The notes: a model not told the origin generated them from the letters alone. A stretch of DNA of 64,000 nt from an uncultured Bdellovibrionales bacterium (GCA_964631745.1 CAZVWV010000002.1:999-64998); one strand, 5' to 3'. Shown: positions 2,922 through 63,092, counted from the stretch's first letter. Numbers and translations: made by a program.

Positions 2922-3026
2922 TTAGAGTATTAAATCAAAATCTTATTGTGCTCGAAAGAGCAGTAAGTCATGGCACGATGGTAGAGCTGGCTGGAAATTG
3001 CGGGTTCGCTCCCGAGCCGATCGGAT

Positions 3027-4308
3027 TTAATCTGAGGTCTTAGGAGCTGCATACTGCATTAGTTTTCGATCCAAAAGTAGTATTGAACCGAAAAGAACAC
3101 ATTTCAACAACCAAGCCACCAAGTTATACCCTAAACTCGGCAAAACAGTATAAACCTGGAAACAAAACGCAAGACTGAGCCAGCATTTGCTATATGCGAC
3201 CCAATGAAACAATTTTTGCGACTCCACCATCAAGAGCGTTACCGGCACGATAACTAAGAACTCCTCAAAATGCCCGATATATGGACTGAACAGCAAATAC
3301 ACCGCCATTATATAAATAAGTCCTCGCAACGCCCTGGCGTGCGAGTTTACCTCCACACCAAAAGCTCGCAAACTCGCCAAGCACACCCAGATAAGGAGCG
3401 CGCTCAGGGCACTCGCAAGGCCTTGTGCCAATCGGATTCCGAGAAAAGGCGCAAAGACCCGAATAAAGGTACAGTCTATAAAATCTAACGACCAGAATTT
3501 ATAGGGGCCTTCAAAAGCAGCGCCCGAGTAAGCCCGAAGTGCTGCAAGGTGTTCCCAAAGTATCCCGATCCCCCACCGCGCCGAGACAAACGTCATCGCC
3601 ACCAATAAAAACGTTAAGCCCAGCATCAGCGCCTTGAAACGCCTCGCGAAAATCAATATGGCAGCTCCACAAAGTAAATAAGGGAATTTAATCCCAAGAA
3701 GCAGGATACCAAAACCCATTACCAGATCCCGAGTTATAGTGGCTGATTGAGTAGCGTAGTAAAATAGAAGTAGTAGAAGCCCCGCCGCAAAAATCGAGCT
3801 CTGTCCGAGCATAACCGCCCGCACAAATGGGGAAGAAAAAATGAACGGCAAAATTAAAAGCAGCGGACCATGCCCAATTAGCCCGACAGGCTCAGAGCAG
3901 CGCGTCACCCGGAGCAACCCGTAAAGAAGTATTAAGCATGAAAGGCCGACAAAGTGCATAGGCCAATTGAGGCGAGAGGTGCAGCGCTACTGTAAAGGGA
4001 TACCATACAAGAATAGCAACCGGCCCAACCCCCACCGGCATTACGCCACTAGGCACAGACCCAAAATACGCCGTTAAGCCGTCAATTTGCGACTGCAATG
4101 TATAGATACTCCCAATCTTGTTCGACCAAAGTTCGTCGATTAGTATGAGATGATAGGTAAAGTCTTGAACTCTAAGCAGGCCGAAGTTCGAGGTAATTAA
4201 TCGTTGATTAGCGGCATTTATCAGATAAACAGTGATAACCAAGATACTGAAAACAAGTACGAAAAAGGCTGCGGTATGGGCTCTCTTCTGGTTAATCGTT
4301 GCCTGCAT
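3027..4308 (-). pseudogene. Polytopic membrane protein, putative GT-C/DUF2029-like glycosyltransferase. It is split into two overlapping frames (3892..4308 is the N-terminal part, 3027..3959 the C-terminal part), an apparent frameshift.
   Basis: Two same-strand ORFs overlap by 68 nt in different frames. Both are very hydrophobic and multi-TM. The combined length of about 427 aa is typical for a single membrane GT. Confidence 0.4.
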
Positions 4309-4603
4309 GAATGTGTTATCCGTTATGTGGTGGTTTAACTTAGACTACCTTACCACCGACCTAGCCCAACTAATCTACCATGCGAAAGAGTTGGCCATCG
4401 GGCGAATCCCATATCGCGACATATTTAGCCACCACTTTTTGGGGCTGCTGCTACCACTTCGTGTTATAGACATAATATGGTCGATCTCCCCCGGCCAGCA
4501 ATGGGCACTTTGTCTGGCCTATAATTTTTGCAATGCTATTCTGATCTTTCTCATAGTTCGCGAACTCGCCAGCCCCCGCGAAGCAGCCGTAAGCGGTCAC
4601 TGA
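4232..4603 (+). pseudogene. N-terminal 123-aa fragment of a GT-C glycosyltransferase paralog, truncated by an IS66-family remnant
   Basis: DYLTTDLAQLIYHAKELAIGRIPYRDIFSHHFLGLLLPL aligns with YDITEMIYHALVVKSGRIPYVDDVTHHFMGYVFPL of the 1326..2921 protein. The ORF stops inside the IS66 terminal inverted repeat (GTAAGCG at 4589). Confidence 0.5.
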
Positions 4604-5163
4604 GGCGCGTTATTGCGCAGGCGAATTTTCCAATTTTTTAGCATTCCACTCCGCCGCCCAAAGCCGTGGCGTAAGCTCTGCCACCTTAGCCATGGGGGTG
4701 GAGTCTACACGCTGCAGCACGTCTACGAAATAATCGAACGGTCGCACGCCATGCAACCGGCACGCTGCCACTAAGGATTGCACTATGGCCACCACCTTGG
4801 CGCCAACCTCAGTCCAACAAAACATCCAGTTTTTGCGCCCCATAGGGATAGGTCGTAAGGTACGTTCAAGCTTGTTGTTATCGATGGGAACCGCCGGGTC
4901 GCCCAAAAATACGCGTAGCTCTGCTTCGGCGCGAAGCGCGTGACTGGCAGCTTTGAGAAATGCATTAGATGGTAAAAGCGCCTTGGTCAGCTGCTCAGCC
5001 CGCAGCCAGTTAAAAAACTCATCCACTATCGGACGGGAATGTCGGTCCCGGGCCTTTAGCCTCTCTTCCAAAGAGGCATCTTTAACCACTTCCTCGATAT
5101 CGTAAAGCCGGCGGATATACTCCAGCGCCTTATCACTTAGTTCCGGTTCATACTGCTTTGCTT
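4589..5163 (-). mobile_element. IS66-family remnant. It encodes only the C-terminal ~200 aa of transposase TnpC and is delimited by the characteristic GTAAGCG terminal repeat.
   Basis: ORF 4610..5242 encodes EAKQYEPELSD...VDSTPMAKVAELTPRLWAAEWNAKKLENSPAQ. This is near-identical to ORF 17997..18605 on the opposite strand. The DNA terminus GTAAGCG at 4589..4595 is the typical IS66 end. Confidence 0.8.
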
Positions 5164-5350
5164 CAAAAATAATTGCGTGCGCACTTGGTAAGTTGTCAGG
5201 GAGTGATGAAGATTCGCTAGACACAAAAATTATGTAGCACAATAATTTTCCTGATGCATTATTTTCTCTTCATTCTCGTAAAGAAAATAGCAACTTCTTT
5301 AACTGCAGCCCTTCTAGCACACACATCAGCTCGCGGTAACTTATCTCTTC

Positions 5351-5427
5351 CGTGTGTGGACTCCACCCCCATGTCTAAGGTGGCAGAGCTTACGCCAAGG
5401 CTTTGGGCGGCGGAGGGGATGCTAAAA
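5351..5427 (+). repeat. Third, 77-bp fragment of the same IS66 3' region (it encodes VDSTPMSKVAELTPRLWAAE), in direct orientation to the right copy
   Basis: 5353..5427 matches 18506..18580 with 8 substitutions. It lies 190 bp from the oppositely oriented left remnant. Confidence 0.7.
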
Positions 5428-5466
5428 ACCTGCAAGAGCAATTTCAAAATTCTAGCTTCGCTTGAC

Positions 5467-6912
5467 TTAGTCCTTACCAACGGCGTTCTTTCGAATCCAT
5501 AATTGAACGCGCCGGTTATTTGATTTTATTAGTGAGAAATTACTATTAAGATACCGCTGAATATCCAGACCCTCTCTAGTCATGCGCTCATTGAGCGCCA
5601 AGAATCTTTCATGATTTTTTGGATCGATTACGATTACCTTGGCAACATCAAGAATACCGGGCATCGCCAAAGCAGAGACAGATTCATAAAACCCACAGCC
5701 AACTCCCATGGTGGTCAAAATTGGGTCTCTAAGCTTCTTACTAAGAAAGCAAAGCGAAGGGTCCGCAAAAACTAACGCCGAGGATTCGTGTGGGATATTG
5801 TCATCTAGATCTTTTGCCAAGAACCTTTGTTGATCTCTCGGTTGCCATTTCTGGAACTGGAAAGAAAGAGAAGTTACACAAATTGGATAGATCACGAGAA
5901 TACTAAACATCACAGCAAAATAGATTAGCTTGAGGCTATTTCTTTTTAGAGAGCTCTGCATGAGTTGCCAGATACCGGTAAAGGCAATCAACTTTACGAA
6001 TGGCGCGGCTAATATTATATAGTGAGGATAGGTACGGAAATAGAGGGGCAGCAGCGACGCAATCAGTGCAACAAACGCAGCCACTAAAATTTCAAACACG
6101 CATCTTGGCATTGGCAAAGCTACCATCCACAGCAAAGGGACGATGACAGGCGCAAGTAACAGGGTAAGTCGAGCCAATATTTTCCAGTCAAAAGAGAACC
6201 CGGTATAGTGCCCACCCGACAGCGTATGCAATAAGTCGACAGGCGATACACCACCGATAATATATAAGGCCGAGAAACAAAGAATAATGGGGATTGTGTA
6301 TCCGATTATAAAAATGAGTATTCGTTTAATTCTAGTTTCAATATTGAATGAGTTACGCAAAGTTAATAACAGCAAACAGGGAACAATAAATAATCCAAAC
6401 TGCTTGTAAAGAAACGCGAGACCGCTGCAATACCCTGAGAAAAAGACACCTTGAATGGGGTAACGAACGAGCAAGTAGAACGAAAATAAACTCAGTAGAG
6501 CCACAAACGGTTCGAGGACGATGTAAGTACCTTCGTAGTAGAACGTCATAAATAGAAGAGCCAGGGCGCCAAGGGTACTCAAGTTGGGGTCTTTGGTAAT
6601 TATCCTTAGGAGCTTATAAAGTATCCACGCTGTAATAAGCTGAACTACGACTAACATCGATAGGTAGATGGAATAATCAGCTTCTCGATTACTCACCCAG
6701 GCAATAACAGCAAAAGTAAATATTCCGAAAGGTGTGTATCCACAACTAAAATCCCTATAAAGGACCAATCCGTTGGATACATAATTCGCGGCACGCAAGT
6801 AGGCACCCGCATCTGGGTTGATTGGAGCAAACTCAATAATCGAACCCGCTGCTAATGCAAAGATGCAACTTAGTACAATATTTAGAAAAACGATGATTCT
6901 TCTGGGCGACAT
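5467..6912 (-). CDS. Polytopic membrane protein, probable GT-C-fold glycosyltransferase paralog
   Basis: 481 aa with at least 11 TM helices. The first-loop motif GLVLYRDFSCGYTPFG resembles that of the 1326..2921 protein, and there is a C-terminal soluble domain. It directly abuts the GT2 gene with a 0-nt gap. Confidence 0.5.
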   Translation of the reverse strand: MSPRRIIVFLNIVLSCIFALAAGSIIEFAPINPDAGAYLRAANYVSNGLVLYRDFSCGYTPFGIFTFAVIAWVSNREADYSIYLSMLVVVQLITAWILYKLLRIITKDPNLSTLGALALLFMTFYYEGTYIVLEPFVALLSLFSFYLLVRYPIQGVFFSGYCSGLAFLYKQFGLFIVPCLLLLTLRNSFNIETRIKRILIFIIGYTIPIILCFSALYIIGGVSPVDLLHTLSGGHYTGFSFDWKILARLTLLLAPVIVPLLWMVALPMPRCVFEILVAAFVALIASLLPLYFRTYPHYIILAAPFVKLIAFTGIWQLMQSSLKRNSLKLIYFAVMFSILVIYPICVTSLSFQFQKWQPRDQQRFLAKDLDDNIPHESSALVFADPSLCFLSKKLRDPILTTMGVGCGFYESVSALAMPGILDVAKVIVIDPKNHERFLALNERMTREGLDIQRYLNSNFSLIKSNNRRVQLWIRKNAVGKD

Positions 6913-7827
6913 CTAGTCAAGTTGTTTGTCAACTACATAGTTTGGGCGACCTTTAACTTCGTCTAAGATTCGCCAAATATATTCGCCAAGTATTCCCAGC
7001 ATGAACATAATGATGCCGCCAATAATAAGCAATAGCATCATAATTGGTGCCCACCCTTGGAAGGGAATCATATGCGCGTAGTACGCCCAAATGATAGTCA
7101 AGGCGTACAAGAAGCCACTGACAGCAAAGCCTCCCCCTACCACTGTGAGCAAACGAATCGGCAAATAGCTAACGTTCAAAAATGCAGAATAAAAATTCCT
7201 GAACCGTTTTACAGTATTATACTGCGATTTACCCGTTTTCCGCCGCAACTTGTCATAAGGGATAAATTTAGTTCTATAACCAGTCCATAAAATGTCATAT
7301 TGGTAGAAACGATTTCTTTCGCTCAAAGAATTTATAACATTCAATACTTTTCGGTCGAGCAAGGCGAAATCAAATCCACCAGGCGGAACATTTGGCAAGA
7401 GCAACCAATAAAAAATACGTGATGTTAATTTCCTGGCGAAGGAAGTTTGGTGAGTTCGTCTATAGCTAATGACGATTTCGCTCCCTTCCTCCCATGCCTT
7501 GATCATAGGAACACACTGCTCAGGTGGATCTTGTAAATCTGCGGCCATGTTAATCACACATTCACCGCGCGCATATTGCCAACCCGCCAGAATTGCAGCC
7601 ATTTGACCAAAATTCCTGGTAAAAGAGATAACCCGCACCTTCGCGTCACGTTCTTTTAGAGCCAATAATTCTACTAGAGAGGCATCTGTCGACCCATCAT
7701 TTACGAACAGTAATTCGTAAGAATGATGCGGGAAATGGACTGCAAATTCACCCACAATTCGCTCGTAAAGCGGCATTAGCGAACCGGCATTCTGATAAAC
7801 TGGAAAACAAACTGAAATGATACTCAC
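6913..7827 (-). CDS. GT2 polyprenyl-phosphate glycosyltransferase (ArnC/GtrB/DPM1-like) with two C-terminal TM helices
   Basis: VCFPVYQN...NDGSTD...DLQDPPE motifs of GT-A family 2, followed by the C-terminal hydrophobic hairpin typical of ArnC/GtrB. Confidence 0.8.
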   Translation of the reverse strand: MSIISVCFPVYQNAGSLMPLYERIVGEFAVHFPHHSYELLFVNDGSTDASLVELLALKERDAKVRVISFTRNFGQMAAILAGWQYARGECVINMAADLQDPPEQCVPMIKAWEEGSEIVISYRRTHQTSFARKLTSRIFYWLLLPNVPPGGFDFALLDRKVLNVINSLSERNRFYQYDILWTGYRTKFIPYDKLRRKTGKSQYNTVKRFRNFYSAFLNVSYLPIRLLTVVGGGFAVSGFLYALTIIWAYYAHMIPFQGWAPIMMLLLIIGGIIMFMLGILGEYIWRILDEVKGRPNYVVDKQLD

Positions 7828-8098
7828 GTTTCACACATGTTTATTCGATGTAGCTTGCCGTCCTAGGCCCTCATGAAGACCACACTGCACGAGAGTCACG
7901 ACACAAGCTGCATAACAAAACGCTGACCTACCATGGGTTGCCAGTCCACGGGGAAACTACCTCGCCATCCTGTTTACACGTGCGGAGTGGCGGAACTACC
8001 ATTCTTCGCGCCGGCTTGCAATGACTTGCACGATTTTCCATATCTCTTGCCCCCTCGTCCCGGAATCTATTCTCCGACTGGCATGGGAAATAGCACCA

Positions 8099-8839
8099 TT
8101 ACTTTCCCTTTTCACAAACGAGTACAATGCTAGAGCAAAGCTCGGGATAAAGCTGCCCCAATTCATAGCATCCTTTCAAATATTCATCTGAAACAATGTC
8201 CGTAGCAAGAATTCTATCCCATTGAAAGTTAGCAAGGGCCTTAAAAAAAACACCCGCTCTGTATAACACTGAAAATCCCGATGCCCGAGCATCGCGCTCA
8301 AGAGTATCGAGACTATAGGTAATTCTGTGACCATGGGCAGCTTCGGCAGCGGTTACAGCGGAATTATGCGTAATTAGTCCCATTTTAACAGCAATTTGTC
8401 GTGAAGGAGCATTAGCATTGGGGCAAACCAAGAAAAATCTACCATCATCCGTTACCCATTCTGTATTCACCCGCTTTAAGATTTCAACGGGGTTGTCCGC
8501 ATGTTCAAGAACGTGGATCATCAGAATATTATCAAATCGACACGGCAGCACTAAATCTTCGAAACGGCCATGAACAAAATTGATCTTCTTCGGTAGGCGA
8601 CTACGAGCGATGCGCAAAGCATCCGAAGACGCGTCGACACAAGTGATCTCATCAAAATGACCCAAAATTCGTTCGGTAAAATCACCTTGAAAACTGCCAA
8701 GTTCAAGAGCCTTCCCAGCTCTAAAAAATGGAGCAATGGTGCGAAGCACAAACGGGTGCATCACTTCGTAGTCAAAGCGATAGGCATACTTGCGCACTTC
8801 GTTATCTTTACATTCTTTATTGTAATCTCTGCTTGACAT
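8099..8839 (-). CDS. Class I SAM-dependent methyltransferase
   Basis: Motif I ALELGSFQGDFT and motif II/III ILMIHVLEHADNP. It is paralogous to the 13318..14058 product; both end in a PELC/PELSCG region. Confidence 0.75.
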   Translation of the reverse strand: MSSRDYNKECKDNEVRKYAYRFDYEVMHPFVLRTIAPFFRAGKALELGSFQGDFTERILGHFDEITCVDASSDALRIARSRLPKKINFVHGRFEDLVLPCRFDNILMIHVLEHADNPVEILKRVNTEWVTDDGRFFLVCPNANAPSRQIAVKMGLITHNSAVTAAEAAHGHRITYSLDTLERDARASGFSVLYRAGVFFKALANFQWDRILATDIVSDEYLKGCYELGQLYPELCSSIVLVCEKGK

Positions 8840-8899
8840 CGAAATTAAGTGTATATTTTAAGTCGCCAAATTGGAGCTCGGTCATAAATTATATTAAAA

Positions 8900-9856
8900 T
8901 CACAGTTCGACCAATTGCGCCATACCGAAACCCGTCTTGCCAAATTCATTGCCATTATAGAGTAGATAGATCTGTTCATCGCATCGAAATATATGGGGAT
9001 AGCAAAGCATTTGGGAATCCCAGCCACTTTCTGAACGATTTAATCCTCCCCTCTTGTCATCGCGAATCCAATTGACTAAATCCATCGAACGGGCATAGCC
9101 AAGCCGATAACTCCGTTGCTTTCCTGATCTAAACCCCGTAGCGTGGCGATAACAGAAATACATATGGTAGCAATCATCAATTTTAATCACGCTTGGAAGC
9201 GCCTGACACTCATTTTCGTCTAAAACAGTCTCGATAAGCTGCTTACTGTCACGTTGCCAATGAACTCCGTCCACCGACTGTGCCTGAGCAATGCGGTAAA
9301 CCCTTTGTGGCTCAGTTTCATACGGATCGCAAAACCACTTACATCCGTAGATATACCACATATAGTATCGCTCCCCAATTTTGGATACAAAAGCATCGCT
9401 GACCAAAAAGGGCTCAAGAAGCGAAGCACCTAGTACTGGGCCCTGACCAAGCTTCTCGAATGTCAGCCCTTGATCGTTACTCACCGCATAGCCAATCGAT
9501 GCCTCAGCTGATACAGAGACTCTTCTACTCCATCCAGTCGTGTATGCAATTATCTTATTCCCGTCCCGAAGAACATTCATCGGAAAAATGCCGTGTTCGT
9601 CGAAACATCCGGGTCCTCCCAAGGCGATGACAGGTTCTTGGGCGACAGCCCTAATTGATTTAAAATCCTTATCGAAATCGACATAAGCTACCAGACTCAA
9701 ATATTTTCCATTCTTGTCGAGCATTCGAGTCGAGAAATATACTCGCACAAAATCGTCAAAGACTAAGGCCTGGGGCGACTGTGCGAAAGCCGTACACTGC
9801 TTAGGAAGCTTATGGGTCGAAGGATCGAATATCTGCCCCAATTTTTTCCAAAACAT
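8900..9856 (-). CDS. BNR/Asp-box repeat beta-propeller protein (sialidase or glycoside-hydrolase-like fold), paralog 2
   Basis: Asp-box motifs SNDQGLTF and SVDGVHW. About 45% identical to the adjacent 9863..10828 product (MFWKKLGQIFDP vs MFSWKKLGRVLDP). Confidence 0.45.
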   Translation of the reverse strand: MFWKKLGQIFDPSTHKLPKQCTAFAQSPQALVFDDFVRVYFSTRMLDKNGKYLSLVAYVDFDKDFKSIRAVAQEPVIALGGPGCFDEHGIFPMNVLRDGNKIIAYTTGWSRRVSVSAEASIGYAVSNDQGLTFEKLGQGPVLGASLLEPFLVSDAFVSKIGERYYMWYIYGCKWFCDPYETEPQRVYRIAQAQSVDGVHWQRDSKQLIETVLDENECQALPSVIKIDDCYHMYFCYRHATGFRSGKQRSYRLGYARSMDLVNWIRDDKRGGLNRSESGWDSQMLCYPHIFRCDEQIYLLYNGNEFGKTGFGMAQLVEL

Positions 9857-9862
9857 TTCTTC

Positions 9863-10828
9863 TTAAGCCCCCGAGTAAGTGTCTAATTCTGCTAATCCAA
9901 AACCGACTCTGCCGATTTCATTCCCTTGGTAAAGCACGTACAGTTTACCGTCCAGTTCTACCAAATGAGCATAGCTTATAGATTCCGAGTCCCATCCGGA
10001 CCCCGACGTAGTCAAACCGGCTCGTCCATCCAAACGCACCCAATTATAAAGGTCGTCCGAGCAAGCATAGCCTATACGATAACCACGAGTTGGCTGAGTG
10101 AATCTCAGTGCATACCGGTATGAAAAAAACATATGATACTTATCTCTGAAGAAGGTGACATCGGGACTTGCTTGACATTCCTCTTCGCTCAAGACGGGAG
10201 GAATTAATGTCTTGCCAACTTTAGTCCAGTTCAACCCGTCACTCGAGTAGGCCATGCGTATCTTGTATACCGGTTCTGAACGAGTATCGGTCAGTAGCCA
10301 CTTATCGCCCGCGACGTACCAAAGGTACCACATGTCTTTAAATCTTCTAATTTTTGGACTCCCGATAACAAAGGGTTCGTCTGGGCTATAACCGAGCACT
10401 GGTCCTTCACCAAGACGTTGAAAAGTTTCTCCATTATCCCAGCTGACGGCGACACCAATAGCAGCATTAAACGGGACCGATTCGCATCTGGTCCAACCTG
10501 CATAATACAGTCTTATTTCGTCACCGTAGCGAATGACAGAAGCAGGATAGATACCAAATTCATCGAAGGTGCCTAAGCGGCCGAGCGGTAAGACTGGATT
10601 TGGAGCCAATGCTTTGACACAACGAAGATCTTTTCGATCTAAATCGACGTAACCAAGCTGGCTTACATACTGACCGGCACTATCGGGAGATGTACGAGAT
10701 GAGAAGAAGACTCGAACATTCTCGTCAAGCACCAAGGCTGAAGGAGCCTGCGCAAACTCTCGAATCCATGTTGAACTTGGTATTGAGGCGGGATCAAGAA
10801 CTCTACCCAATTTTTTCCATGAAAACAT
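9863..10828 (-). CDS. BNR/Asp-box repeat beta-propeller protein (sialidase or glycoside-hydrolase-like fold), paralog 1
   Basis: Asp-box motifs SWDNGETF and SSDGLNWT. Tandem paralog of the 8900..9856 product. Confidence 0.45.
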   Translation of the reverse strand: MFSWKKLGRVLDPASIPSSTWIREFAQAPSALVLDENVRVFFSSRTSPDSAGQYVSQLGYVDLDRKDLRCVKALAPNPVLPLGRLGTFDEFGIYPASVIRYGDEIRLYYAGWTRCESVPFNAAIGVAVSWDNGETFQRLGEGPVLGYSPDEPFVIGSPKIRRFKDMWYLWYVAGDKWLLTDTRSEPVYKIRMAYSSDGLNWTKVGKTLIPPVLSEEECQASPDVTFFRDKYHMFFSYRYALRFTQPTRGYRIGYACSDDLYNWVRLDGRAGLTTSGSGWDSESISYAHLVELDGKLYVLYQGNEIGRVGFGLAELDTYSGA

Positions 10829-10839
10829 ATTCCGTGCTG

Positions 10840-11511
10840 CTAAGACAGTTTACACAAACTCTCTGCACCGGTTTTCAAGCATCCATAGTAATAGTCGTTA
10901 AAACCAGCGGCTTCCATCATCTCGAAAATTTTATGCATATCGTATGTGACCCTATGTAATTCAAATCGACCATCGAATGTCGCAAAAGCAGCACGCGGGT
11001 CCTTGTCTCGTGGTTGCCCAACTGAGCCGGGGTTGCAATAAGCCTTGCTGCCATAGTCGCATAAGATCTGCTTATGAGTGTGCCCTGAAACAAAAAATTT
11101 GCCGACAATATTACGAAAATAGTCAGCAGTAGGTTGTACATACTCATCAATGGGATCCGACCAACCGCCGTGAACCAAATGCAGCTTACCTACTCTTCTA
11201 TGCAACGAAAGTTGGCTTAACCAGCTCAAGTTGTCCGCGGTAATAATCTTGCGTTGGTAGGTCAAACAATCGTTGACACTTCTGGAGCGCGGACAGAAGC
11301 CTCCGCCCACCATATACCAATCGTGATTGCCCATTATTGTGGGGATTTCACGCCCTATGAGCTCCTGACAACACTCATTGATCTGAGGATAATAGCCTAC
11401 GACATCACCAAGACAATACACCTGCGACACGCGCAGCGCATCTAGCTTCGCCAAGACCGATTGTAATGCTTCGTAATTGCCATGGATATCAGAAATGAGA
11501 CCAATTTTCAT
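10840..11511 (-). CDS. Calcineurin-like metallophosphoesterase (YfcE/MJ0936-type)
   Basis: DIHGN, GDvvgyyP, GNHD and GHTH motifs. Overlaps the upstream ATP-grasp gene by 4 nt. Confidence 0.75.
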   Translation of the reverse strand: MKIGLISDIHGNYEALQSVLAKLDALRVSQVYCLGDVVGYYPQINECCQELIGREIPTIMGNHDWYMVGGGFCPRSRSVNDCLTYQRKIITADNLSWLSQLSLHRRVGKLHLVHGGWSDPIDEYVQPTADYFRNIVGKFFVSGHTHKQILCDYGSKAYCNPGSVGQPRDKDPRAAFATFDGRFELHRVTYDMHKIFEMMEAAGFNDYYYGCLKTGAESLCKLS

Positions 11512-12470
11512 TTATACGAAACTAAGTCTTCCACATAACGTACCGCTTCGCCATATCTAAGCTTGGGCTGGCGCGGCAACTTCTTTTCTAGAAAAAAATC
11601 AACTAACATCGCAGACTCGTTGTAGCCAAAAGCAGTTCGCATAGATGTGGAAGAAGAGATGCGCGGGTTAATTTCAAGCAATTTTAAGGCCCCGGCGTGT
11701 TTTCTAAATTGAAAATTTGTAGGTCCCAGCGGGCGAAAATAGCGGCACAGTTCGCGCAAGACATCTTGCGCCTCATCGAGTTTCACAACTTCCGCCCTGT
11801 CCGTATATCCATCCTTTGATAACCTACGGCGCAAACTTATTTGCGCACAGTAATCGCCATTTCCATCACCAAAGACTGAAACAGTATACTCTTCCTCGTC
11901 ACTTCCCACAAGTGCTTGCGACATTAAAGACTTACCAATATTCTCACGATGGGCCAGAAATACAGTCCGATCTGCCACCCTCACTATTCCGCGAGCAGCA
12001 TGCCCATGACGCGGTTTCAATATGAACGGAACGCCGAACCGTTCAGCAAGAAGATCAAAATTGTCATCCAATGACGAATCTATAACAAATGCTGGATTGA
12101 GTTTTGCCAGGTGTCCATAAAAAACCCATTTGTCCTTGCAAAGGGCGATTAACTCCGGTCTGTTCAGCGCGAATATGCGGCTGTTTTTTGACATTTCATG
12201 CAAATTCTCACTCCACTTGTACATATCAATCTCAATTCCCGGGACAACTAAATCCACTGCATGCTTACGAATCGTTGCATCCAACCATCCTATATAGCCG
12301 TCGTCATTTGTATTCGGAGCAACTTCAAAAATATCACTGAAGTGTTCAGCGATAGTTCCCGTATAGATGGAAGTGCCAATCAGCGTCACGTTTTCATGGA
12401 CTTTCCGCAGGGAACGCAAAATTCCATAACCGATAATTCCACTGGCTCCCGAAACCAAAATTGTTGTCAT
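11508..12470 (-). CDS. ATP-grasp family ligase
   Basis: FILKPRHGHAARGI (the ATP-binding lysine loop) and LEINPRISSS (the E-x-N signature of ATP-grasp enzymes). N-terminal Rossmann-like GASGIIG. Confidence 0.75.
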   Translation of the reverse strand: MTTILVSGASGIIGYGILRSLRKVHENVTLIGTSIYTGTIAEHFSDIFEVAPNTNDDGYIGWLDATIRKHAVDLVVPGIEIDMYKWSENLHEMSKNSRIFALNRPELIALCKDKWVFYGHLAKLNPAFVIDSSLDDNFDLLAERFGVPFILKPRHGHAARGIVRVADRTVFLAHRENIGKSLMSQALVGSDEEEYTVSVFGDGNGDYCAQISLRRRLSKDGYTDRAEVVKLDEAQDVLRELCRYFRPLGPTNFQFRKHAGALKLLEINPRISSSTSMRTAFGYNESAMLVDFFLEKKLPRQPKLRYGEAVRYVEDLVSYK

Positions 12471-13354
12471 ATGTCTATCTTTGTCCTTCTCGAAGATGCT
12501 ATGCGATTTAACCCTTCCTGAATAGAAATCTTAGGGTAAAAACCGATTCGCTCATAAAGCGAGAAGTTCTTATGGAAGATCTTATCAGCAAGGTCGTCTC
12601 GCGTAATATCGAAGCTGACCTTCCCATGGCGCCCAAACGCCTCAAAGGCGGCATTAGCAACAGTTGAATAAGAATAATCCTGTACATACTGGCAATTGTA
12701 GATCCCTTCGAGACGCAGCTGTACAACTCGGCGCAAGACATCCGTGAGATCTTCGATGAAAATGTAATTTCGTAAAGCGTCATGGCTACCGTAAATGATG
12801 ATATCTCTGCCAGCTTGAGCTTGATCAATAATATGATACAAGAAAGGCTGATGTCGACGGAAGTTTTCAGTCTCACCGTAAATTTGAGAAGGACGCACGA
12901 TGCACAACGGGAGAGAGTTGGTTGCACAATGCATCACCGCCACATCCTCAGAATATCTTTTTGTCAAAGCATATGGTGAATACGAAGCAAAACCTTGCCC
13001 AATAGATGCAAAAATGCTCGAAACTTGAATAAAATGCTTTGCGCCCATTTTGGCGGCTTTTTCACAAAGCCTTAGTGTCCCAAGGACATTAATATTGATT
13101 GCGTCTGATAGTTGATTATACGACGCACCTCCGAAGTGCGCCGCGGTATTTATAACAACATCCAGATTCGTTGGAATTTCCATCTCCTCTGGACCTTCCG
13201 CCAAGTCAACATGAACATCACAAGAATTCCGGCCGCCGGTCACTACCTCACAGAATTCAGAAAGCGCAACTTTGAGTGCTACCCCTAATGCAGAATGACC
13301 CCCGACAATCAGAACTTTCATCGCATCCTCTGAATTTGGGCTAGTATTCCGCAC
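12467..13354 (-). CDS. NAD-dependent epimerase/dehydratase family (extended SDR) protein
   Basis: N-terminal MKVLIVGGHSALG nucleotide-binding motif and catalytic YALTK (YxxxK). Overlaps both neighbouring genes by 4 nt and 37 nt. Confidence 0.7.
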   Translation of the reverse strand: MRNTSPNSEDAMKVLIVGGHSALGVALKVALSEFCEVVTGGRNSCDVHVDLAEGPEEMEIPTNLDVVINTAAHFGGASYNQLSDAININVLGTLRLCEKAAKMGAKHFIQVSSIFASIGQGFASYSPYALTKRYSEDVAVMHCATNSLPLCIVRPSQIYGETENFRRHQPFLYHIIDQAQAGRDIIIYGSHDALRNYIFIEDLTDVLRRVVQLRLEGIYNCQYVQDYSYSTVANAAFEAFGRHGKVSFDITRDDLADKIFHKNFSLYERIGFYPKISIQEGLNRIASSRRTKIDI

Positions 13355-14058
13355 GAAAGTTCAGGATAACCAATTCCTACTTCACATAATGCGTCGATAA
13401 TCCGATGGTCTAGCTTCAAATCCAAAATTTGCTTGGTCGTAAACGGTTTGAGATAAATTCCTTCCAATTGCGCAATCTCACAACCTGCCTTATGCACGTC
13501 CTCTCTCAATGTACGAACAGTATAGTAGCGCTTGTGTCCAAGCAAAACATCATTGCCCGATAGCTCTTCGATGTTGGGCAGCAAGCCCGCAATGTGCCCC
13601 AGCCTTCGATTAAGGGCTTCGGCATTAGGCACGGCAACATATAGTGTCCCACCGGGCTCCAAAAATCTTGCATAACGCGAAATGAGAAAAGCGGGATTAT
13701 CCACATGCTCCAAAACAAAGCCCAAAACAATCAAGTCAAAAATCTCAGTGGTGTCAAAACTTTCGAAGAGTGACTCAACTACTTGCGCTGAACAATCTGG
13801 AAATCTTTGCTTAAAATGGACTGTGACGGCAGGCGAACCATCTATCACCACATGTCGTTTAAAATGCTTCGCGAATCTAGCGGTGGAATACCCATGACCC
13901 AATCCTAACTCTAATAAAGACTTCGCCTCACCTGACAAGGCAATGATTCGCTCAGGATACCAATTCAATAAAATTTCATTATCAAAATCGTACAAAATCC
14001 CACCGTTATAGGCAGTGACCGATCTATCCAATGTTTTATTCATAGGTGTGTCACTCAT
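13318..14058 (-). CDS. Class I SAM-dependent methyltransferase, paralog of the 8099..8839 product
   Basis: Motif I LELGLGHGYS, LIVLGFVLEHVDNP, and a C-terminus co-linear with the other methyltransferase. Confidence 0.7.
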   Translation of the reverse strand: MSDTPMNKTLDRSVTAYNGGILYDFDNEILLNWYPERIIALSGEAKSLLELGLGHGYSTARFAKHFKRHVVIDGSPAVTVHFKQRFPDCSAQVVESLFESFDTTEIFDLIVLGFVLEHVDNPAFLISRYARFLEPGGTLYVAVPNAEALNRRLGHIAGLLPNIEELSGNDVLLGHKRYYTVRTLREDVHKAGCEIAQLEGIYLKPFTTKQILDLKLDHRIIDALCEVGIGYPELSCGILAQIQRMR

Positions 14059-14064
14059 GTCTTA

Positions 14065-15150
14065 TTATTCGATTACTTCACCGACGATCCTAGCTATTTT
14101 GGAAACAATTTCAGACTCAAGGTCATGATACAATGGTAAGCATAGCACTCGCTTGGCTACGTCTTCCGTAATTGGAACGCTTTGCGGTTTAACATAATTA
14201 AGCCTATTCAGCGCAGGGTAAAAGTAGCGACGGGTCAATATAAGTTGATCTTTCAACGCAGCACGGACACGCAACAAAACGCTTTCTGATTCAAAAAGCA
14301 CAGGATAGTAAGAATAATTATATTGCAGACCTGGTTGGCTAGTCGGCCTGCTAAGCTTAGCCTTCCAAAATGGCGCCAGCAGCCTGTCGTATTCATCGGT
14401 TACGACTTTTCTTTTTTGAATGAGTGTTGGAACATGGGGAAGAACTGCTAGGCCCATAGCAGCGTGGAGTTCCGAATTCTTTGCATTAATTCCTAATCCA
14501 AAAAAAGCCTCGGGGCCATTGTGCCCGAAATTCATCAAGTAAAATATCTTGTGTGCGAGGTCATCGTCATTAGTTAAAATGGCCCCGCCTTCCCCAGTAT
14601 GAAATAGTTTAGTGGCATGGAAACTGACTGTCGAGATATCGCCGTTATTTAATATCGCTTTTCCATTCAAACGACACGCAAAAGCCTGGGCCCCGTCGTA
14701 TATGACCTTGAGACGATTAGCTTCTGCGATTTGCTGTATTTTTTCCACATCGCAACTATTACCGTAAACATGCACCGGCAAAATTGCCGATGTATTTCCA
14801 TTAATTTTTGCTTCTATACATGCAGGGTCGAGACAAAATGTGCGCGGGTCTATTTCAGAATAAATTGGCTCGCACCCCTCCCAACAAATCGCCGCGGTAG
14901 TGGCGACGTAACTGAAAGCGCTAGTGATAATTTCCCCACCAAGTCCTAGTGCGCGAATAGCAATTTGCAAGGCAATCGTGCCGTTGCTGACTAGATAAAC
15001 ATGCTTTACTCCGAACAGAGACTTAAGCTCGGCCTGCAAGCGCTGAGATAGAGGACCATGATTCGTAACCCAACGCTGGTCCCAAATTTGCCGCAGATAT
15101 TCCACATAGGTATTAAAATCGGGAACGAATGTTTTGGTTACGGTAATCAT
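14065..15150 (-). CDS. DegT/DnrJ/EryC1/StrS-family PLP-dependent sugar aminotransferase (ArnB/PseC-like)
   Basis: 361 aa. SFHATK carries the PLP lysine. Family-typical N-terminus (VTKTFVPDFNTYVEYLRQIWD..WVTNHGP) and C-terminal LCLPLYHDL. Confidence 0.85.
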   Translation of the reverse strand: MITVTKTFVPDFNTYVEYLRQIWDQRWVTNHGPLSQRLQAELKSLFGVKHVYLVSNGTIALQIAIRALGLGGEIITSAFSYVATTAAICWEGCEPIYSEIDPRTFCLDPACIEAKINGNTSAILPVHVYGNSCDVEKIQQIAEANRLKVIYDGAQAFACRLNGKAILNNGDISTVSFHATKLFHTGEGGAILTNDDDLAHKIFYLMNFGHNGPEAFFGLGINAKNSELHAAMGLAVLPHVPTLIQKRKVVTDEYDRLLAPFWKAKLSRPTSQPGLQYNYSYYPVLFESESVLLRVRAALKDQLILTRRYFYPALNRLNYVKPQSVPITEDVAKRVLCLPLYHDLESEIVSKIARIVGEVIE

Positions 15151-15629
15151 TGGTAACCGTCTCCAATTGTACCTGAATTGAAAAATTTACAGTTTGAAAT
15201 ATATTTGCACGATATTGTATACAATTCATCAATCCCTTTCGGATCTTTCTATCACTAAGTCACAGCTCGGTCGATAGCCCCAGGACAATCTCACTGGCAG
15301 CAACCTATCGTCCTATAATCTACTGGTATAATTGAGGAAATTGAAATGAGGCAGATAGGCAAGAGTTGCACCCCTGAATAGAGTTAGCATTATAGTCTAA
15401 CCTATCAGAAGAAAAGCCGATGGAAGCGCGTCTAGTAAATTTCGCACTACTGTCACATTTTTCAGTTATCAGGGATCCACGTCGCATATGCGGAAAGTTA
15501 CATCGGCTTGAGAAGATCTTATGCCTGTCTGTGTAGGGCATTATAAGCGGAGCTGAGAGTTGGGTTGAAACTCTGCGCAGGCCAGTAAGTGCAGAAATAG
15601 TATCGATTGACGGAAAGACGCTGCGGCGT

Positions 15630-16301
15630 TCATTTGACAAGGCAAACGGTTTGCATCCACTTCATATAGTGAGCGCACTGGTCATAGCGTCCGCCAGCGG
15701 CCACGCTCCCACACTCCCTGTATCCCTCCATCTGCACCTCCAGAATGGTGCCGGTATAGTAATCCAATCCGCGAGCAAGGCTCAGGTCGACCTCGATGTT
15801 AGCCAGCGCATCGGGATCCAAAAGCGATACAAGCTCCACCATTTTCGTCTTTGCCTTCCAAGCAGAGCTTATTGTTCACTTACAAGCTAGACAGAACGTA
15901 CCGCCTTCAGCCGCAGGAATTTTTACCTCCGCAAAGTCGGTGATTCTTTTGGCTTGGCTTTGGTCGATCTTGACCTTTTCAATGAGATCTTTAAGCACTG
16001 CATCTCTGCCGGTCTTGGCAATTTTATCCAGCACCGTTATGGCAGCCTTTGACTCGTCGGCATTCAGGCCAAGCGAGGCACAGATTCCAAGCAACAGCTT
16101 ACGGTTATTAATACGCATGGCATGTTTACCGACATCAAGCACCTTGAAGACCTGATGCATGGCCGAGCGGTAGGTGCAGCACCTGTGCCGGACTTTGGTC
16201 ATACATCCTGGGCGACACCGTGCGCTTTGTGGATTCAATTCCGCCGCGCGTGATGGTAACCGGCCGCACGTCGTAATTACCTCTCGGCATTCCGTGAACA
16301 T
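15630..16301 (-). pseudogene. Decayed fragment of a histidyl-tRNA synthetase-like (HisS/HisZ class II) gene with in-frame stops
   Basis: [16 protein letters not shown]...[10 protein letters not shown] is the HisRS motif-3 region. Upstream in the same frame, INNRKLLLGI...ITVLDKIAKTGRDAVLKDL.EKVKID matches the HisRS insertion domain. Two stop codons at 15876..15878 and 15870..15872 separate the pieces. The N-terminal motif 1/2 region and the anticodon-binding domain are absent. Confidence 0.5.
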
Positions 16302-16898
16302 TTAATAGCCGAAGAGATCGAGGCCGGAATTTCCGGGGCCGCCGCCGCCATCGGGCGGGATGTAAGCGATTATCCGGTAGGCGCTCTGTACCCAACCAGC
16401 GCGTTGGAGCTAGGCGGCCATCTTTATGTGGTGGAGTTCAGCGGAACAGGCGAGATTCAAAACCAAAAGGCTCTAGATGAATTCTCAGCCGTCTTAGACC
16501 GCATACTCTGCGCGCGAAGCGCGGATTACGCCGCCCACCGAAACTAAGGTTTCGGGCTTAAGCCGCCCCAAATAAAGCCTGTGCGACCTGGGTCTTTTGC
16601 GGATTGAATGAAATCACGCGGCAAGTTCGGCGGGCAGAATAAGGTGCCACGGATTATTAATCGGGGGAGGTGTTTGATGGGCTGGTGGCGTATGAGTGAG
16701 GAGGAGGAGCACTTGAGGGTCTATCTATGATGCAAGAGTGGCTGTCTATTACTAGCCCCATTTTGGATCAAAGATCACGACTCTTAATTGAAGCTATGGG
16801 TTCAGTTTTGTCCTTAAGCGGGTGATCGGGTCTTTCGCTAGGGCCCGGGAAAATCTATCGTCTTACAGGATTCAGGAATTAGAACAGGTAGGTCACTC

Positions 16899-17603
16899 GT
16901 GAAAATAGCTATCATGCAACCGTACTGGTTTCCATACATCGGCTATTTTCAGCTCATGTCCGCAGTGGACACCTTCATAGTATACGACAATGTGCAGTAT
17001 ACAAAAAAGGGTTGGGTTAATCGCAATCGAATACTCCATCAAAGTCAACCAGTTCAAATCTCCATACCCATAAAGAAAGGGGGTCATTCGCTATTCATAA
17101 TTGACCGGATCATTGCTGACAATTGGAGTACACAACGGTGGAGAATCTTAAATCAAGTGCGCGATTTTTACCTGCAAGCTCCGATGTATCAAGATGTATT
17201 CCCACTAGTAGAGAACTGCCTATTGCACGAAGATTTAAATCTTTTTCGACATATTTCCTATTCAATTCGTAAGACCCGTGAGTACATGGGCTTGGCGTCA
17301 ACTTTTCTCGTTTCCTCCGAATTAAAAATCGATCACACCCTAAAAGGAGAAGACAAAGTTATTGCAATTTGTAGCGAAATCGGCGCAAAGCAATACATAA
17401 ACCCAATCGGTGGAACCGAACTTTACTCCAGGGAGAAATTCGCCTCATATGGCATTGATTTGCGATTCTTGAAGTCAAAGCAAATTGAATACAAACAATT
17501 CGATAAATCCTTCGTGCCTTGGCTCTCAATAATTGACGTGTTAATGTTTAATGACCTAGAAACTACTAATCAGTTTCTGAAACACGAATATATGTTGCTG
17601 TAA
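16899..17603 (+). CDS. WbqC-like family protein (function unknown, polysaccharide loci)
   Basis: MKIAIMQPYWFPYIGYFQLMSAVDTFIVYDNVQYTKKGWVNRNRI is the hallmark N-terminus of the WbqC family. GTG start. Confidence 0.75.
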   Translation: MKIAIMQPYWFPYIGYFQLMSAVDTFIVYDNVQYTKKGWVNRNRILHQSQPVQISIPIKKGGHSLFIIDRIIADNWSTQRWRILNQVRDFYLQAPMYQDVFPLVENCLLHEDLNLFRHISYSIRKTREYMGLASTFLVSSELKIDHTLKGEDKVIAICSEIGAKQYINPIGGTELYSREKFASYGIDLRFLKSKQIEYKQFDKSFVPWLSIIDVLMFNDLETTNQFLKHEYMLL

Positions 17604-17746
17604 CCCTAGAGGTGAGTTCATGAATACCCGTAGCAAGGCAAGTAGGCTTATTGCGTATGCAAGAAAGGTGACAGAGCGAGCGCGCAGGGAGCCTTTCAAC
17701 AAGAAATAGATGGCTGTCTGAATATCGGCTATATGAAGCTAGCAGA

Positions 17747-18626
17747 ATGACAGTGAAAGCGTTTTGCGCGGAGCGCAAGCTCAATTACTATACGTTTAAG
17801 GGCTGGCAGAGAGTGTTTAGCCGAGAGGGAGTAGAGCAGTTTCGCGAGTTGGCACCCACGCCAAATGCGGAGGCTAGCTACGCTGTAGTGTTAGCCAACG
17901 GCCGGGAGCTTAAAGTAAGCGCTGGATTTTCGATTACATCTAGGGGGCCAGGGGAACGGTACCAATTCTGGTCAACCACCGATCCGGTCGGCACTTTTGT
18001 TAGAGCCCATATACGAGGCGCAGCTAGCCTCGGCGCTCAACGAGTTCTTTGAAGCAAAGCAGTATGAACCGGAACTAAGTGATAGGGCGCTGGAGTATAT
18101 CCGCCGACTTTACGATATCGAGGAAGTGGTTAAAGATGCCTCTTTGGAAGAGAGGCTAAAGGCCCGGGACCGACATTCCCGTCCGATAGTGGATGAGTTT
18201 TTTAACTGGCTGCGGGCTGAGCAGCTGACCAAGGCGCTTTTACCATCTAATGCATTTCTCAAAGCTGCCAGTCACGCGCTTCGCGCCGAAGCAGAGCTAC
18301 GCGTATTTTTGGGCGACCCGGCGGTTCCCATCGATAACAACAAGCTTGAACGTACCTTACGACCTATCCCTATGGGGCGCAAAAACTGGATGTTTTGTTG
18401 GACTGAGGTTGGCGCCAAGGTGGTGGCCATAGTGCAATCCTTAGTGGCAGCGTGCCGGTTGCATGGCGTGCGACCGTTCGATTATTTCGTAGACGTGCTG
18501 CAGCGTGTAGACTCCACCCCCATGGCTAAGGTGGCAGAGCTTACGCCACGGCTTTGGGCGGCGGAGTGGAATTCTAAAAAATTGGAAAATTCGCCTGCGC
18601 AATAACGCGCCTCAGTGACCGCTTAC
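17747..18626 (+). mobile_element. IS66-family remnant. A short tnpA-like ORF (17747..18052) is fused or adjacent to the C-terminal ~200 aa of tnpC (17997..18605), ending in the terminal repeat CGCTTAC at 18620..18626. tnpB and the N-terminal half of tnpC are deleted.
   Basis: HTH-like FCAERKLNYYTFKGWQR and ...VVLANGRELKVSAGF resemble IS66 TnpA. 18049..18622 is about 97% identical to the reverse complement of 4590..5163. Confidence 0.75.
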
Positions 18627-61283: not shown

Positions 61284-63092
61284 ATGAAAAGCTCAGAACT
61301 ACCAAAAGACGATCTCTATAAAATAAGACACTCGCTGGCGCATGTTATGGCGCAGGCTGTGCTAAAAATTCGCCCGCACGCCAAACTCGCATTCGGGCCT
61401 CCGATTGATACTGGGTGTTACTATGATTTTCTTTTTGATCAGCCACTTACCAGTAATGACTTCGTCACTATCGAAAATAACATGCGCGCCATCATCAAGG
61501 AGAAACAAGAATTCATCGGCTCCTCACGCCCAGTGAAAGAGGCCTGCGATTTTTTGAGGGCGCAAAATGAGAACTTCAAGCTCGAATATTGCGAAGAGCT
61601 AATTAGTAAGGGGGAAACTACGATCGGATTTTACAAGAACGGCCCTTTTGAAGATATGTGCGCCGGTCCCCACCTCAAACACACGGGCGAAATTCCGAGG
61701 GATTGTTTCAAAATAGACTCATTGGCGGGTGCCTATTGGCGCGGCGATGAGAACAATCCCCAGCTGACCCGCATCTACTGCTTAGCTTTTTCAACTAAGG
61801 CCGAACTTGACCAATACATTGAGAATCGCAAATTGGCCATGGAACGGGATCACAGAAAGCTCGGCAAAGAATTAGAGCTCTTCATGTTCTCGGATCAAGT
61901 TGGACCTGGACTTCCACTTTGGATGCCAAACGGGACCGTCATCCGGGAGGCGCTTGAAGCGTTAGCCAAAGAGACGGAGCAACGTTACGCATATCAGCGC
62001 GTTGCCACACCGCACCTGGCAAAAGAGGAATTGTACCTAACCTCAGGACATCTGCCATTTTACAAAGACTCGATGTTTCCGCCCATGCAGTTGGAGGGCG
62101 AGTCGAACTATTACCTTAAGGCTATGAACTGCCCGCATCACCATATGATTTACGGGCACCGGCCTCGAAGTTACCGGGAACTGCCGTTGCGCTTAGCCGA
62201 GTACGGCAACTGTTACCGGTTCGAAGCTTCCGGAACTCTGGCGGGTTTATTGCGCGTGCGTTCCTTGGCCATGAATGACGCCCATATTTATTGCACGATC
62301 GAGCAGCTTAAAGCGGAGTTGAAAAACACCTTTAAGATGACCATTGATTATTACGAGATGTTTCGTTTTAAGAATGTGCGTGTGCGCGTATCCACTCATG
62401 ACCCACTTAACAAAGAGAAATTTGTCGACAACCCCGAGCTTTGGAAATTCTCGGAAGAAGTCGTGGAAGAGGTCGCCAAAGAGATGGGCGTTGAATATTT
62501 TGTCGGACAAGGCGAGGCTGCCTTTTACGGACCCAAGATCGACTTTCAAGCTTCGACCATGCTTGGTCGGGAAGAAAGCATCAGCACCACTCAGCTAGAT
62601 TTTGCGAGCCCAATTCGGTTCGGGTTAGCTTATACCGCTGAAGATGGTAAAGAGCATAAACCTTACATCGTGCATCGAGCGCCGCTTGGAACACACGAAC
62701 GCTTTTTGGCGTTTTTGATTGAGCATTTTGGTGGGGCCTTTCCGACCTGGATGTCGCCCAAGCAACTAAGAATAATCCCCGTGGGTGAAAAGTTTAACGA
62801 GGCCGCGCACAACCTAGCGCAACGCTTGCGTGACAAGTTGATACGCGTCGATCTAGACGATTCGGATAATTCCTTTAATAAGAAAATTCGCGAAGCCGTA
62901 ACGCACAAGATCCCAAATATGGCGATCTTAGGTGGCCGTGAGGTAGAAAACGGCACGGTAACACTGCGACGCTACGCCGTGCCCGAACAAGTTACTATGA
63001 CTCAGGACGAACTGCTGGCGAGGCTGCTGATGTTAAACGAAAAGCGCATAATGGATAACTTCCCCGATATGGTTATTCCGGACAAGCTTTAG
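61284..63092 (+). CDS. thrS: Threonyl-tRNA synthetase (short form lacking the N-terminal TGS domain)
   Basis: Starts directly in the editing domain (IRHSLAHVMAQAV... vs E. coli IRHSCAHLLGHAI at residue ~70). Class II motifs and C-terminal anticodon-binding domain. 602 aa. Confidence 0.9.
   Translation: MKSSELPKDDLYKIRHSLAHVMAQAVLKIRPHAKLAFGPPIDTGCYYDFLFDQPLTSNDFVTIENNMRAIIKEKQEFIGSSRPVKEACDFLRAQNENFKLEYCEELISKGETTIGFYKNGPFEDMCAGPHLKHTGEIPRDCFKIDSLAGAYWRGDENNPQLTRIYCLAFSTKAELDQYIENRKLAMERDHRKLGKELELFMFSDQVGPGLPLWMPNGTVIREALEALAKETEQRYAYQRVATPHLAKEELYLTSGHLPFYKDSMFPPMQLEGESNYYLKAMNCPHHHMIYGHRPRSYRELPLRLAEYGNCYRFEASGTLAGLLRVRSLAMNDAHIYCTIEQLKAELKNTFKMTIDYYEMFRFKNVRVRVSTHDPLNKEKFVDNPELWKFSEEVVEEVAKEMGVEYFVGQGEAAFYGPKIDFQASTMLGREESISTTQLDFASPIRFGLAYTAEDGKEHKPYIVHRAPLGTHERFLAFLIEHFGGAFPTWMSPKQLRIIPVGEKFNEAAHNLAQRLRDKLIRVDLDDSDNSFNKKIREAVTHKIPNMAILGGREVENGTVTLRRYAVPEQVTMTQDELLARLLMLNEKRIMDNFPDMVIPDKL

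Follow-up and report, generated by a model that had tools for sequence, protein, structure and literature searches.

Which genes left the remnants that lie between a DegT aminotransferase gene and a WbqC-like gene in an uncultured Bdellovibrionales bacterium, and how did they come to lie there? The two flanking genes are part of a low-GC (G+C content) island within the 64,000-nucleotide stretch of genomic DNA analyzed here (GCA_964631745.1 CAZVWV010000002.1:999-64998; hereafter the window, with positions counted from its first letter). The 1748 bp between them contain no intact gene, which confirms the gap of ~1.75 kb noted in the initial annotation. Translated searches showed that this gap is made up of fragments of three gene families placed end to end, namely an ISAs1 transposase, a histidyl-tRNA synthetase (HisRS, encoded by hisS) and a GH3 enzyme resembling OlsH. 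All three are well-known families, and none of the parts passes the tests for a functional member; the identities and end points of the fragments were demonstrated directly. We consider it highly probable that the gap is the collapsed remnant of a divergent pair of genes, a canonical hisS and an OlsH-like GH3 gene, that was brought about by one deletion and holds no working gene.

A hisS fragment and a GH3 fragment lying head to head

When full-length HisRS was used as a tblastn query, ~165 residues of the catalytic core were recovered in one frame of the minus strand (16166..15672), corresponding to residues ~147-311 of a ~437-amino acid (aa) HisRS, or ~38% of the protein. The fragment matched Pfam tRNA-synt_His (PF13393; E = 1.6e-12, profile positions 133-289 of 308), TIGR00442 hisS (E = 9e-23, 80.9 bits, positions 142-291 of 406) and the HisRS of PDB entry 3NET (E = 1.7e-19, residues 169-333). 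Tblastn with HisRS and profile searches against HisS and HisZ thus returned significant class II aminoacyl-tRNA synthetase (aaRS) matches, as the initial annotation had anticipated. That annotation had described the minus-strand segments as HisRS or HisZ, and only the first of these assignments held. HisZ (TIGR00443) has a homologous fold and gave a weaker but significant match (E = 2.4e-12, 46.6 versus 80.9 bits), and the fragment's nearest relatives carry anticodon-binding domains and pass the hisS, not the hisZ, cut-off.

Alignment with full-length relatives showed that the fragment is collinear with canonical HisRS (the TIGR00442/PF13393 family, including the GH3-linked form of Bdellovibrionota and 3NET) and keeps 24 of 27 positions that are invariant among the relatives. 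The insertion domain, correctly recognized at the outset, is present, as are RGLDYYTG and GGRYD (as AAGGRYD), which we take to be the HisRS-specific HisA and HisB signatures, distinct from class II motif 3. The peptides ending in GGRYD had been called a motif-3 region; they are not class II motif 3, and the real motif 3 is missing. In fact, homology starts after motif 2 (WRGxRPQxGRFREFYQ in relatives) and stops before motif 3 (GVGxSIGLxRL in relatives), so that motifs 1, 2 and 3, all present in canonical HisRS, are lacking. Residues ~312-437, with the anticodon-binding domain (PF03129) that the relatives possess, likewise have no counterpart, and the reported loss of the N- and C-terminal parts was therefore borne out by alignment. 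The HisRS N-terminus, motif 2 and anticodon-binding domain were not found in the other frames of 15100-17000 or elsewhere in the window, and no further HisRS or GH3 piece was detected within the 64 kb.

The HisRS frame has no start codon. Two in-frame stops had been reported for it; one, a TGA at 15876-15878, lies inside the homologous stretch, and the stops at 15630-15632 and 16302-16304 lie outside. With an interrupted frame and a score of 80.9 bits, the fragment does not reach the hisS cut-off of 286.75. Because every ATP-binding and tRNA-binding element is gone, it cannot function as a synthetase and is a pseudogene, not an enzyme.

An initial listing of homologues, seemingly limited to proteins of at most ~1.7 times the query length, gave a best identity of 39%. 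Upon exhaustive re-testing with HMMER against 1.84 billion representative proteins, the closest non-self match was 44% identical, which is the upper limit of identity to any known HisRS; the only closer representatives were two gene-caller open reading frames (ORFs) made from the pseudogene itself. The nearest relatives in this set are canonical HisRS proteins of 438-442 aa with anticodon-binding domains. Among the 148 best hits retrieved as sequences, only four were of the Bdellovibrionota type (at least 50% identical to GH3-linked HisRS), and these occupied non-self ranks 1, 2, 4 and 5. The third-ranked match, a 794-aa protein (P0171; L006 4866-7250, Logan SRR3100150), has an unusual HisRS architecture in which two tRNA-synt_His regions flank an anticodon-binding domain, and its gene adjoins one for a 1048-aa PAN-domain protein. 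Two proteins considered as the intact hisS product of the same sample (P0170, P0173) were rejected, as both come from other samples. A pattern scan of GTDB representative genomes with the HisRS fragment matched 138 stretches, none of which was a true relative; the source genome is accordingly not one of those representatives.

The plus-strand fragment corresponds to residues ~336 to the end of a ~515-aa OlsH-like protein, that is, to its C-terminal third. Such GH3 proteins act as ATP-dependent amino-acid/fatty-acid amide ligases. The fragment matched Pfam GH3_C (PF23572; E = 1.3e-16, positions 2-117 of 119) and NCBIfam OlsH_GH3_orni (NF052613; E = 8.7e-30, 103.7 bits, positions 388-502 of 524), and tblastn resolved it into two collinear segments, 72-81% and 52-60% identical to GH3 proteins of Bdellovibrionota. 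Overall it is 48-58% identical to its relatives, which is inside the relatives' own range. A frameshift occurs at 16274-16277. Downstream of it are two in-frame stops, TAA at 16545-16547 and, in place of an invariant Trp, TGA at 16605-16607, and the frame closes at 16728-16730. The start-less 95-codon frame reported at 16260..16548 (ending in AHRN) is indeed present; it does not stand as a separate ORF, being the middle of this GH3 remnant. The N-terminal and middle adenylating domains (PF03321, PF23571) are absent. The OlsH equivalog cut-off is 620 bits, and the fragment as well as the intact relatives (588-611 bits) fall below it. Compared with OlsH, the planctomycete GH3-like lyso-ornithine lipid synthetase (PMC12493201), the remnant shares the full GH3_C region including the GK(L/F)GGQNKVPR motif and lacks the N-terminal adenylating part in which the catalytic residue S115 was placed (PMC12493201). 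Homologues of OlsH in organisms other than planctomycetes may use other amino acids (PMC12493201), and the substrate of the ancestral GH3 may therefore have been a different amino acid. Long contigs with split GH3 C-terminal fragments (P0132, P0140) carried the GH3 in separately called pieces in ordinary contexts and were uninformative.

The two fragments meet almost directly. HisRS homology ends at 16166 (residue ~147) and GH3 homology begins at 16178 (residue ~336), and the same limits were obtained with 11 relatives by tblastn. The fragments point away from the junction, head to head with 11 bp between them, and both are without their 5′ parts. At the opposite end, HisRS similarity stops just past GGRYD at ~15680, where the similarity of the opposite strand to ISAs1 also ends. 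The ISAs1 remnant matched Pfam DDE_Tnp_1_assoc (PF13808; E = 1.4e-8, profile positions 2-40 of 88) and NCBIfam transpos_ISAs1 (E = 1.4e-8, positions 63-104 of 314). It shares with the family the N-terminal DDE_Tnp_1-associated region and the IDGKTLRRS...LH.VSA block, but the whole DDE catalytic domain is missing, there is an in-frame TAG at 15534-15536, and the two model matches suggest an internal deletion estimated at ~45-50 codons. No terminal repeats were identified for it and no second ISAs1 copy occurs in the window.

The hisS/GH3 pair in relatives and the proposed history of the junction

An alignment of GH3 C-termini was scanned against 185,579 species-representative genomes and the best 80 loci were kept. 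The closest of these belong to metagenome-assembled genomes (MAGs) of Bdellovibrionota, with 53-57% identity. By tblastn, hisS was found near the GH3 gene in 10 of the 14 Bdellovibrionota-type loci; in seven of them (L008, L010, L012, L016, L017, L020, L037) the genes are divergent and 0.5-0.9 kb apart, and in three they lie within 2-9 kb. In L010, for example, hisS occupies 7040-8362 on the minus strand and GH3 8876-10423 on the plus strand. The remaining 66 loci, mostly alphaproteobacterial, had no hisS in the same search. The best full-length match on a long contig, from JGI (P0172), lies downstream of a trp operon and comprises a 509-aa GH3 on the minus strand, an 86-aa ORF and a 438-aa HisRS with an anticodon-binding domain on the plus strand. 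The hisS genes of the relatives score 340-342 bits against the equivalog cut-off of 286.75 and are therefore canonical. Housekeeping and lipid genes, among them RdgB/HAM1 and a DesA-like desaturase, surround them, and polysaccharide genes are absent from the vicinity. This arrangement, like the end points of the fragments, was demonstrated directly. In the Bdellovibrionota pair loci an ORF of ~250 aa and the DesA-like desaturase come after GH3, and HisRS is just 49-58% identical between the Bdellovibrionota lineages that keep the GH3 pairing.

The arrangement in relatives suggests a simple history. The ancestral locus would have been a divergent hisS and OlsH-like GH3 pair of the type typical of the Bdellovibrionota lineage. 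A single deletion of ~2 kb would then have taken both 5′ parts together with the shared intergenic region, leaving the 3′ parts fused at 16167-16177. As estimated on L010, L016 and L017, the lost DNA would have comprised hisS codons 1 to ~146 (~440 bp), a spacer of 510-650 bp and GH3 codons 1 to ~335 (~1000 bp). In a separate event, the last ~126 hisS codons, encoding motif 3 and the anticodon-binding domain, were probably lost at the ISAs1 junction, and the ISAs1 element at that junction would itself have decayed to a stump afterwards. After inactivation, the relic would have acquired the three stops, the one frameshift and a few non-conservative changes at invariant positions. This decay is modest for ~1050 bp, and 89-90% of the positions invariant among relatives are kept; the losses (E>K, L>C, F>M; G>R, N>S, E>A, L>F, L>W) are non-conservative, unlike the changes seen in functional relatives. 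Since decay is so modest, most of the divergence from known HisRS probably predates inactivation. We infer that a single deletion, not two events, made the junction, and ISAs1 activity presumably brought the segment to its present place. As hisS is essential, a functional copy is presumably carried elsewhere in this genome.

Several observations weigh against this history. The essential nature of hisS is itself one of them, in that the intact second copy is something we infer. Over the same 167 columns, identity of the HisRS fragment to its Bdellovibrionota counterparts is 32-39%, whereas the deep lineages of that phylum share 40-50% among themselves; the fragment thus appears somewhat more divergent than an orthologue with mild decay would predict. 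A HisRS from Verrucomicrobiota (P0174, 37%) is about equally close, and orthology of the HisRS piece is unproven by sequence alone, so that the argument leans on synteny. Three Bdellovibrionota GH3 loci (L007, L013, L015) are without an adjacent hisS, the flanks of the window relic show no synteny with those of the relatives' hisS/GH3 loci, and the right boundary of the relic (16731-16898) has neither an insertion sequence (IS) remnant nor a repeat.

The relic and its surroundings in the window

The features of the gap and its two flanking genes are compiled in Table 1.

Table 1. Gene remnants, spacers and flanking genes between DegT and WbqC, in window coordinates
Feature	Position	Strand	Evidence
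DegT/DnrJ/EryC1 aminotransferase, intact, left flank	14065..15150	-	Pfam PF01041, E = 3.2e-85; context, outside the relic
AT-rich spacer (39% GC), DegT start to IS remnant	15151..15419	.	No homology found
ISAs1 transposase remnant, N-terminal part	15420..15683	+	Pfam DDE_Tnp_1_assoc, NCBIfam transpos_ISAs1
hisS internal fragment	15672..16166	-	Pfam, TIGR00442, PDB 3NET, tblastn
Putative deletion junction, 11 bases GCGGTAGGTGC	16167..16177	.	tblastn end points on either side
GH3/OlsH-like gene, 3′ third	16178..16730	+	Pfam GH3_C, NCBIfam OlsH_GH3_orni, tblastn
Spacer, GH3 stop to WbqC start	16731..16898	.	No recognizable remnant
WbqC-like gene, intact, right flank	16899..17603	+	Pfam PF08889, E = 3.1e-66; context

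Neither spacer yielded a further gene remnant. The translation of the left one had no match in Pfam, and its single sigma-70-like consensus (15178-15205, plus strand) is no more than the count seen in shuffles; promoter and terminator scans in general gave yields not above those of shuffled sequence. The right one was compared by tblastn with eight DegT homologues that precede WbqC and with the window DegT, and only chance-level matches to a DegT 3′ end were obtained. The whole window was also scanned for Rfam families and tRNAs, with no hits. When terminal repeats of an IS or target duplications were sought around the relic, only one imperfect 14-nt direct repeat was obtained, at chance level. 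This repeat, AACCTATCGTCCTA at 15302-15315 and AATCTATCGTCTTA at 16852-16865, brackets the ISAs1 stump and the relic and could delimit an inserted segment, but is no more than chance would give.

The relic lies inside a low-GC island (5243..17603; mean 44.5% GC, maximum 48.4% in 500-bp windows) that is bracketed by inverted remnants of the C-terminal half of an IS66 transposase. These remnants are 579 bp long and 99.5% identical (4589-5167 and 18048-18626), with an additional 76-nt match at 92% (5354-5428 and 18505-18580), and an IS66 TnpA-like ORF remnant occurs at 17747-18052. With 54.1% GC the relic is above every 500-bp window of the island. Relative to the core of the analyzed window (49.5 ± 3.1%), it is in the upper range, and it falls within the range of several relatives.

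The island genes were compared with 25 related WbqC loci obtained from a metagenome scan. None showed similarity to HisRS or GH3, and this absence was again demonstrated directly. WbqC has DegT upstream on its own strand in 13 of the 25 loci, and in eight the two are directly adjacent. In three (L089, L093, L107) GH130-like genes come after WbqC, accompanied in L093 by a methyltransferase; the window equivalents of these genes lie at 8099..10828. Because related loci normally have DegT immediately upstream of WbqC on the same strand, the head-to-head DegT/WbqC order of the window is derived and the relic is at the breakpoint. The relic is thus at a rearrangement point of the island and outside the island's conserved gene set; its immediate neighbors are DegT, WbqC and IS remnants. 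These findings do not support the proposal in the initial annotation that the remnants are decayed cargo of the IS-bracketed island, from which they also differ in GC, and the intact orthologues that it proposed seeking in relatives with the same island were found in none of the 25 loci.

Additional observations were made on the island and its edges. In related clusters (L089, L090, L093, L102-L104, L107, L108, L110, L111) the order on one strand is DegT, WbqC, two GH130-like genes and a methyltransferase; in the window, WbqC has been shifted across DegT and is encoded on the opposite strand, and four extra genes (methyltransferase, SDR epimerase, ATP-grasp and phosphodiesterase-like) lie between DegT and the GH130-like genes. 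The latter (8900-9856 and 9863-10828, minus strand) are tandem paralogues with weak GH130/GH32/GH43-like beta-propeller matches, including a beta-1,2-mannobiose phosphorylase model at E ~1e-11 to 1e-14, and are kept beside WbqC in several metagenomic loci with 41-60% identity. ORFs of 531, 310, 138 and 481 aa (1326-4308 and 5467-6912, minus strand) remained unmatched in Pfam at E ≤ 0.001; the left IS66 remnant has the 481-aa ORF just inside it and the other three just outside.

The threonyl-tRNA synthetase (ThrRS) of the window (61284..63092) is 74-76% identical to its best hits, of which the named ones are proteins from 'Bdellovibrionales' and 'Oligoflexia' MAGs, and by this sequence comparison the organism is assigned to Bdellovibrionota. 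Ten window proteins that were looked up, including NuoL/M/N and ThrRS, had no full-length partner in 90%-identity clusters, the sole extra member being a 264-aa Logan fragment for NuoL. As such partners are lacking and the nearest ThrRS is only 76% identical, the source is a poorly sampled Bdellovibrionota/Oligoflexia-like lineage, otherwise seen only in sequencing runs SRR12762304 and SRR12762305. A called protein on a Logan contig (L001) is identical to the window DegT.

Alternative explanations and significance

The defects could in principle be errors of assembly or sequencing, with the genes intact in the organism, as NCBI holds a single contig for this genome and its proteins are singletons in 90%-identity clusters. 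Two Logan assemblies from the separate runs SRR12762304 and SRR12762305, however, match 13986..18077 at 100% identity, so that the stops and other lesions are not errors of one assembly. Moreover, the defects consist in the loss of large segments (~2 kb and ~0.4 kb), not in single-base errors, and we regard an artefact as extremely improbable. Hardly better placed is the proposal, made in the initial annotation, that the fragment comes from a specialized HisRS- or HisZ-like paralogue of the island which, with the ATP-grasp enzyme, served sugar acylation by activating an amino acid. The relic does lie inside an IS66-bracketed, low-GC island that encodes such an enzyme, the essential nature of hisS means that this copy must once have been a second or replaced copy, and the divergence of the fragment somewhat exceeds what an orthologue would be expected to show. 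But the match to hisS is far better than that to hisZ, and the closest relatives are canonical HisRS proteins with anticodon domains. The physical partner is a GH3 gene, in an arrangement conserved outside any glycan cluster, and HisRS or GH3 was present in 0 of 25 related WbqC/DegT loci. The GC of the relic differs from that of the island, and DegT, a methyltransferase gene and an SDR gene separate the relic from the ATP-grasp gene, at a distance of 3 kb. This explanation is largely refuted and very improbable.

Also unlikely is an origin of the HisRS and GH3 fragments as unrelated debris, brought together by at least two independent truncations or insertions. Several events are evident at the locus: the ISAs1 stump carries an internal deletion, the IS66 copies are truncated and inverted, and WbqC is displaced. 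Neither microhomology nor another signature of a single deletion could be shown. Chance debris would nevertheless have had to come to rest head to head within 11 bp, reproducing the orientation of seven Bdellovibrionota loci and one contig, and both fragments share a similar GC that is not that of the island. Possible, if on balance doubtful, is that the hisS/GH3 segment was never functional here and was imported with mobile DNA from a Bdellovibrionota of somewhat higher GC, perhaps already truncated. Such an import is compatible with a collapsed hisS/GH3 pair as regards the identity of the fragments, and differs only on where the pair lived. It would account for a GC ~1.5 standard deviations over the core mean and within the range of several relatives (52-60%), for the position between island genes beside an IS remnant without synteny of the flanks, and for a divergence greater than expected for a native orthologue. 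Composition is not decisive, however, as 500-bp windows of the core have at least 51.5% GC in 27% of cases and at least 56% in 2%, and no donor-like sequence of more than 44% identity was present among the 1.84 billion representatives.

Taken as a whole, the gap exemplifies common pseudogene decay by deletion, located at a rearrangement point associated with IS elements, and is of a kind already known. The gene-caller ORFs of 94 and 70 aa (P0167, P0168) derive from the dead hisS, and we recommend annotating them as pseudogene fragments instead of tRNA-synt_His proteins. Nor should the region be cited in favor of an aaRS-like enzyme involved in modifying glycans; it would rather serve as a clean example of how a single deletion across a divergent gene pair can produce two 'start-less' remnants. 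A mildly interesting by-product is the conserved hisS/GH3 (OlsH-like) neighborhood in Bdellovibrionota. We think it improbable, though conceivable, that the divergent pairing reflects functional or regulatory coupling, for instance through a shared bidirectional control region or through a GH3 that makes a histidine-containing or other N-acyl amino-acid lipid. If so, the relic would record the loss or xenologous replacement of hisS along with the loss of a lipid pathway.

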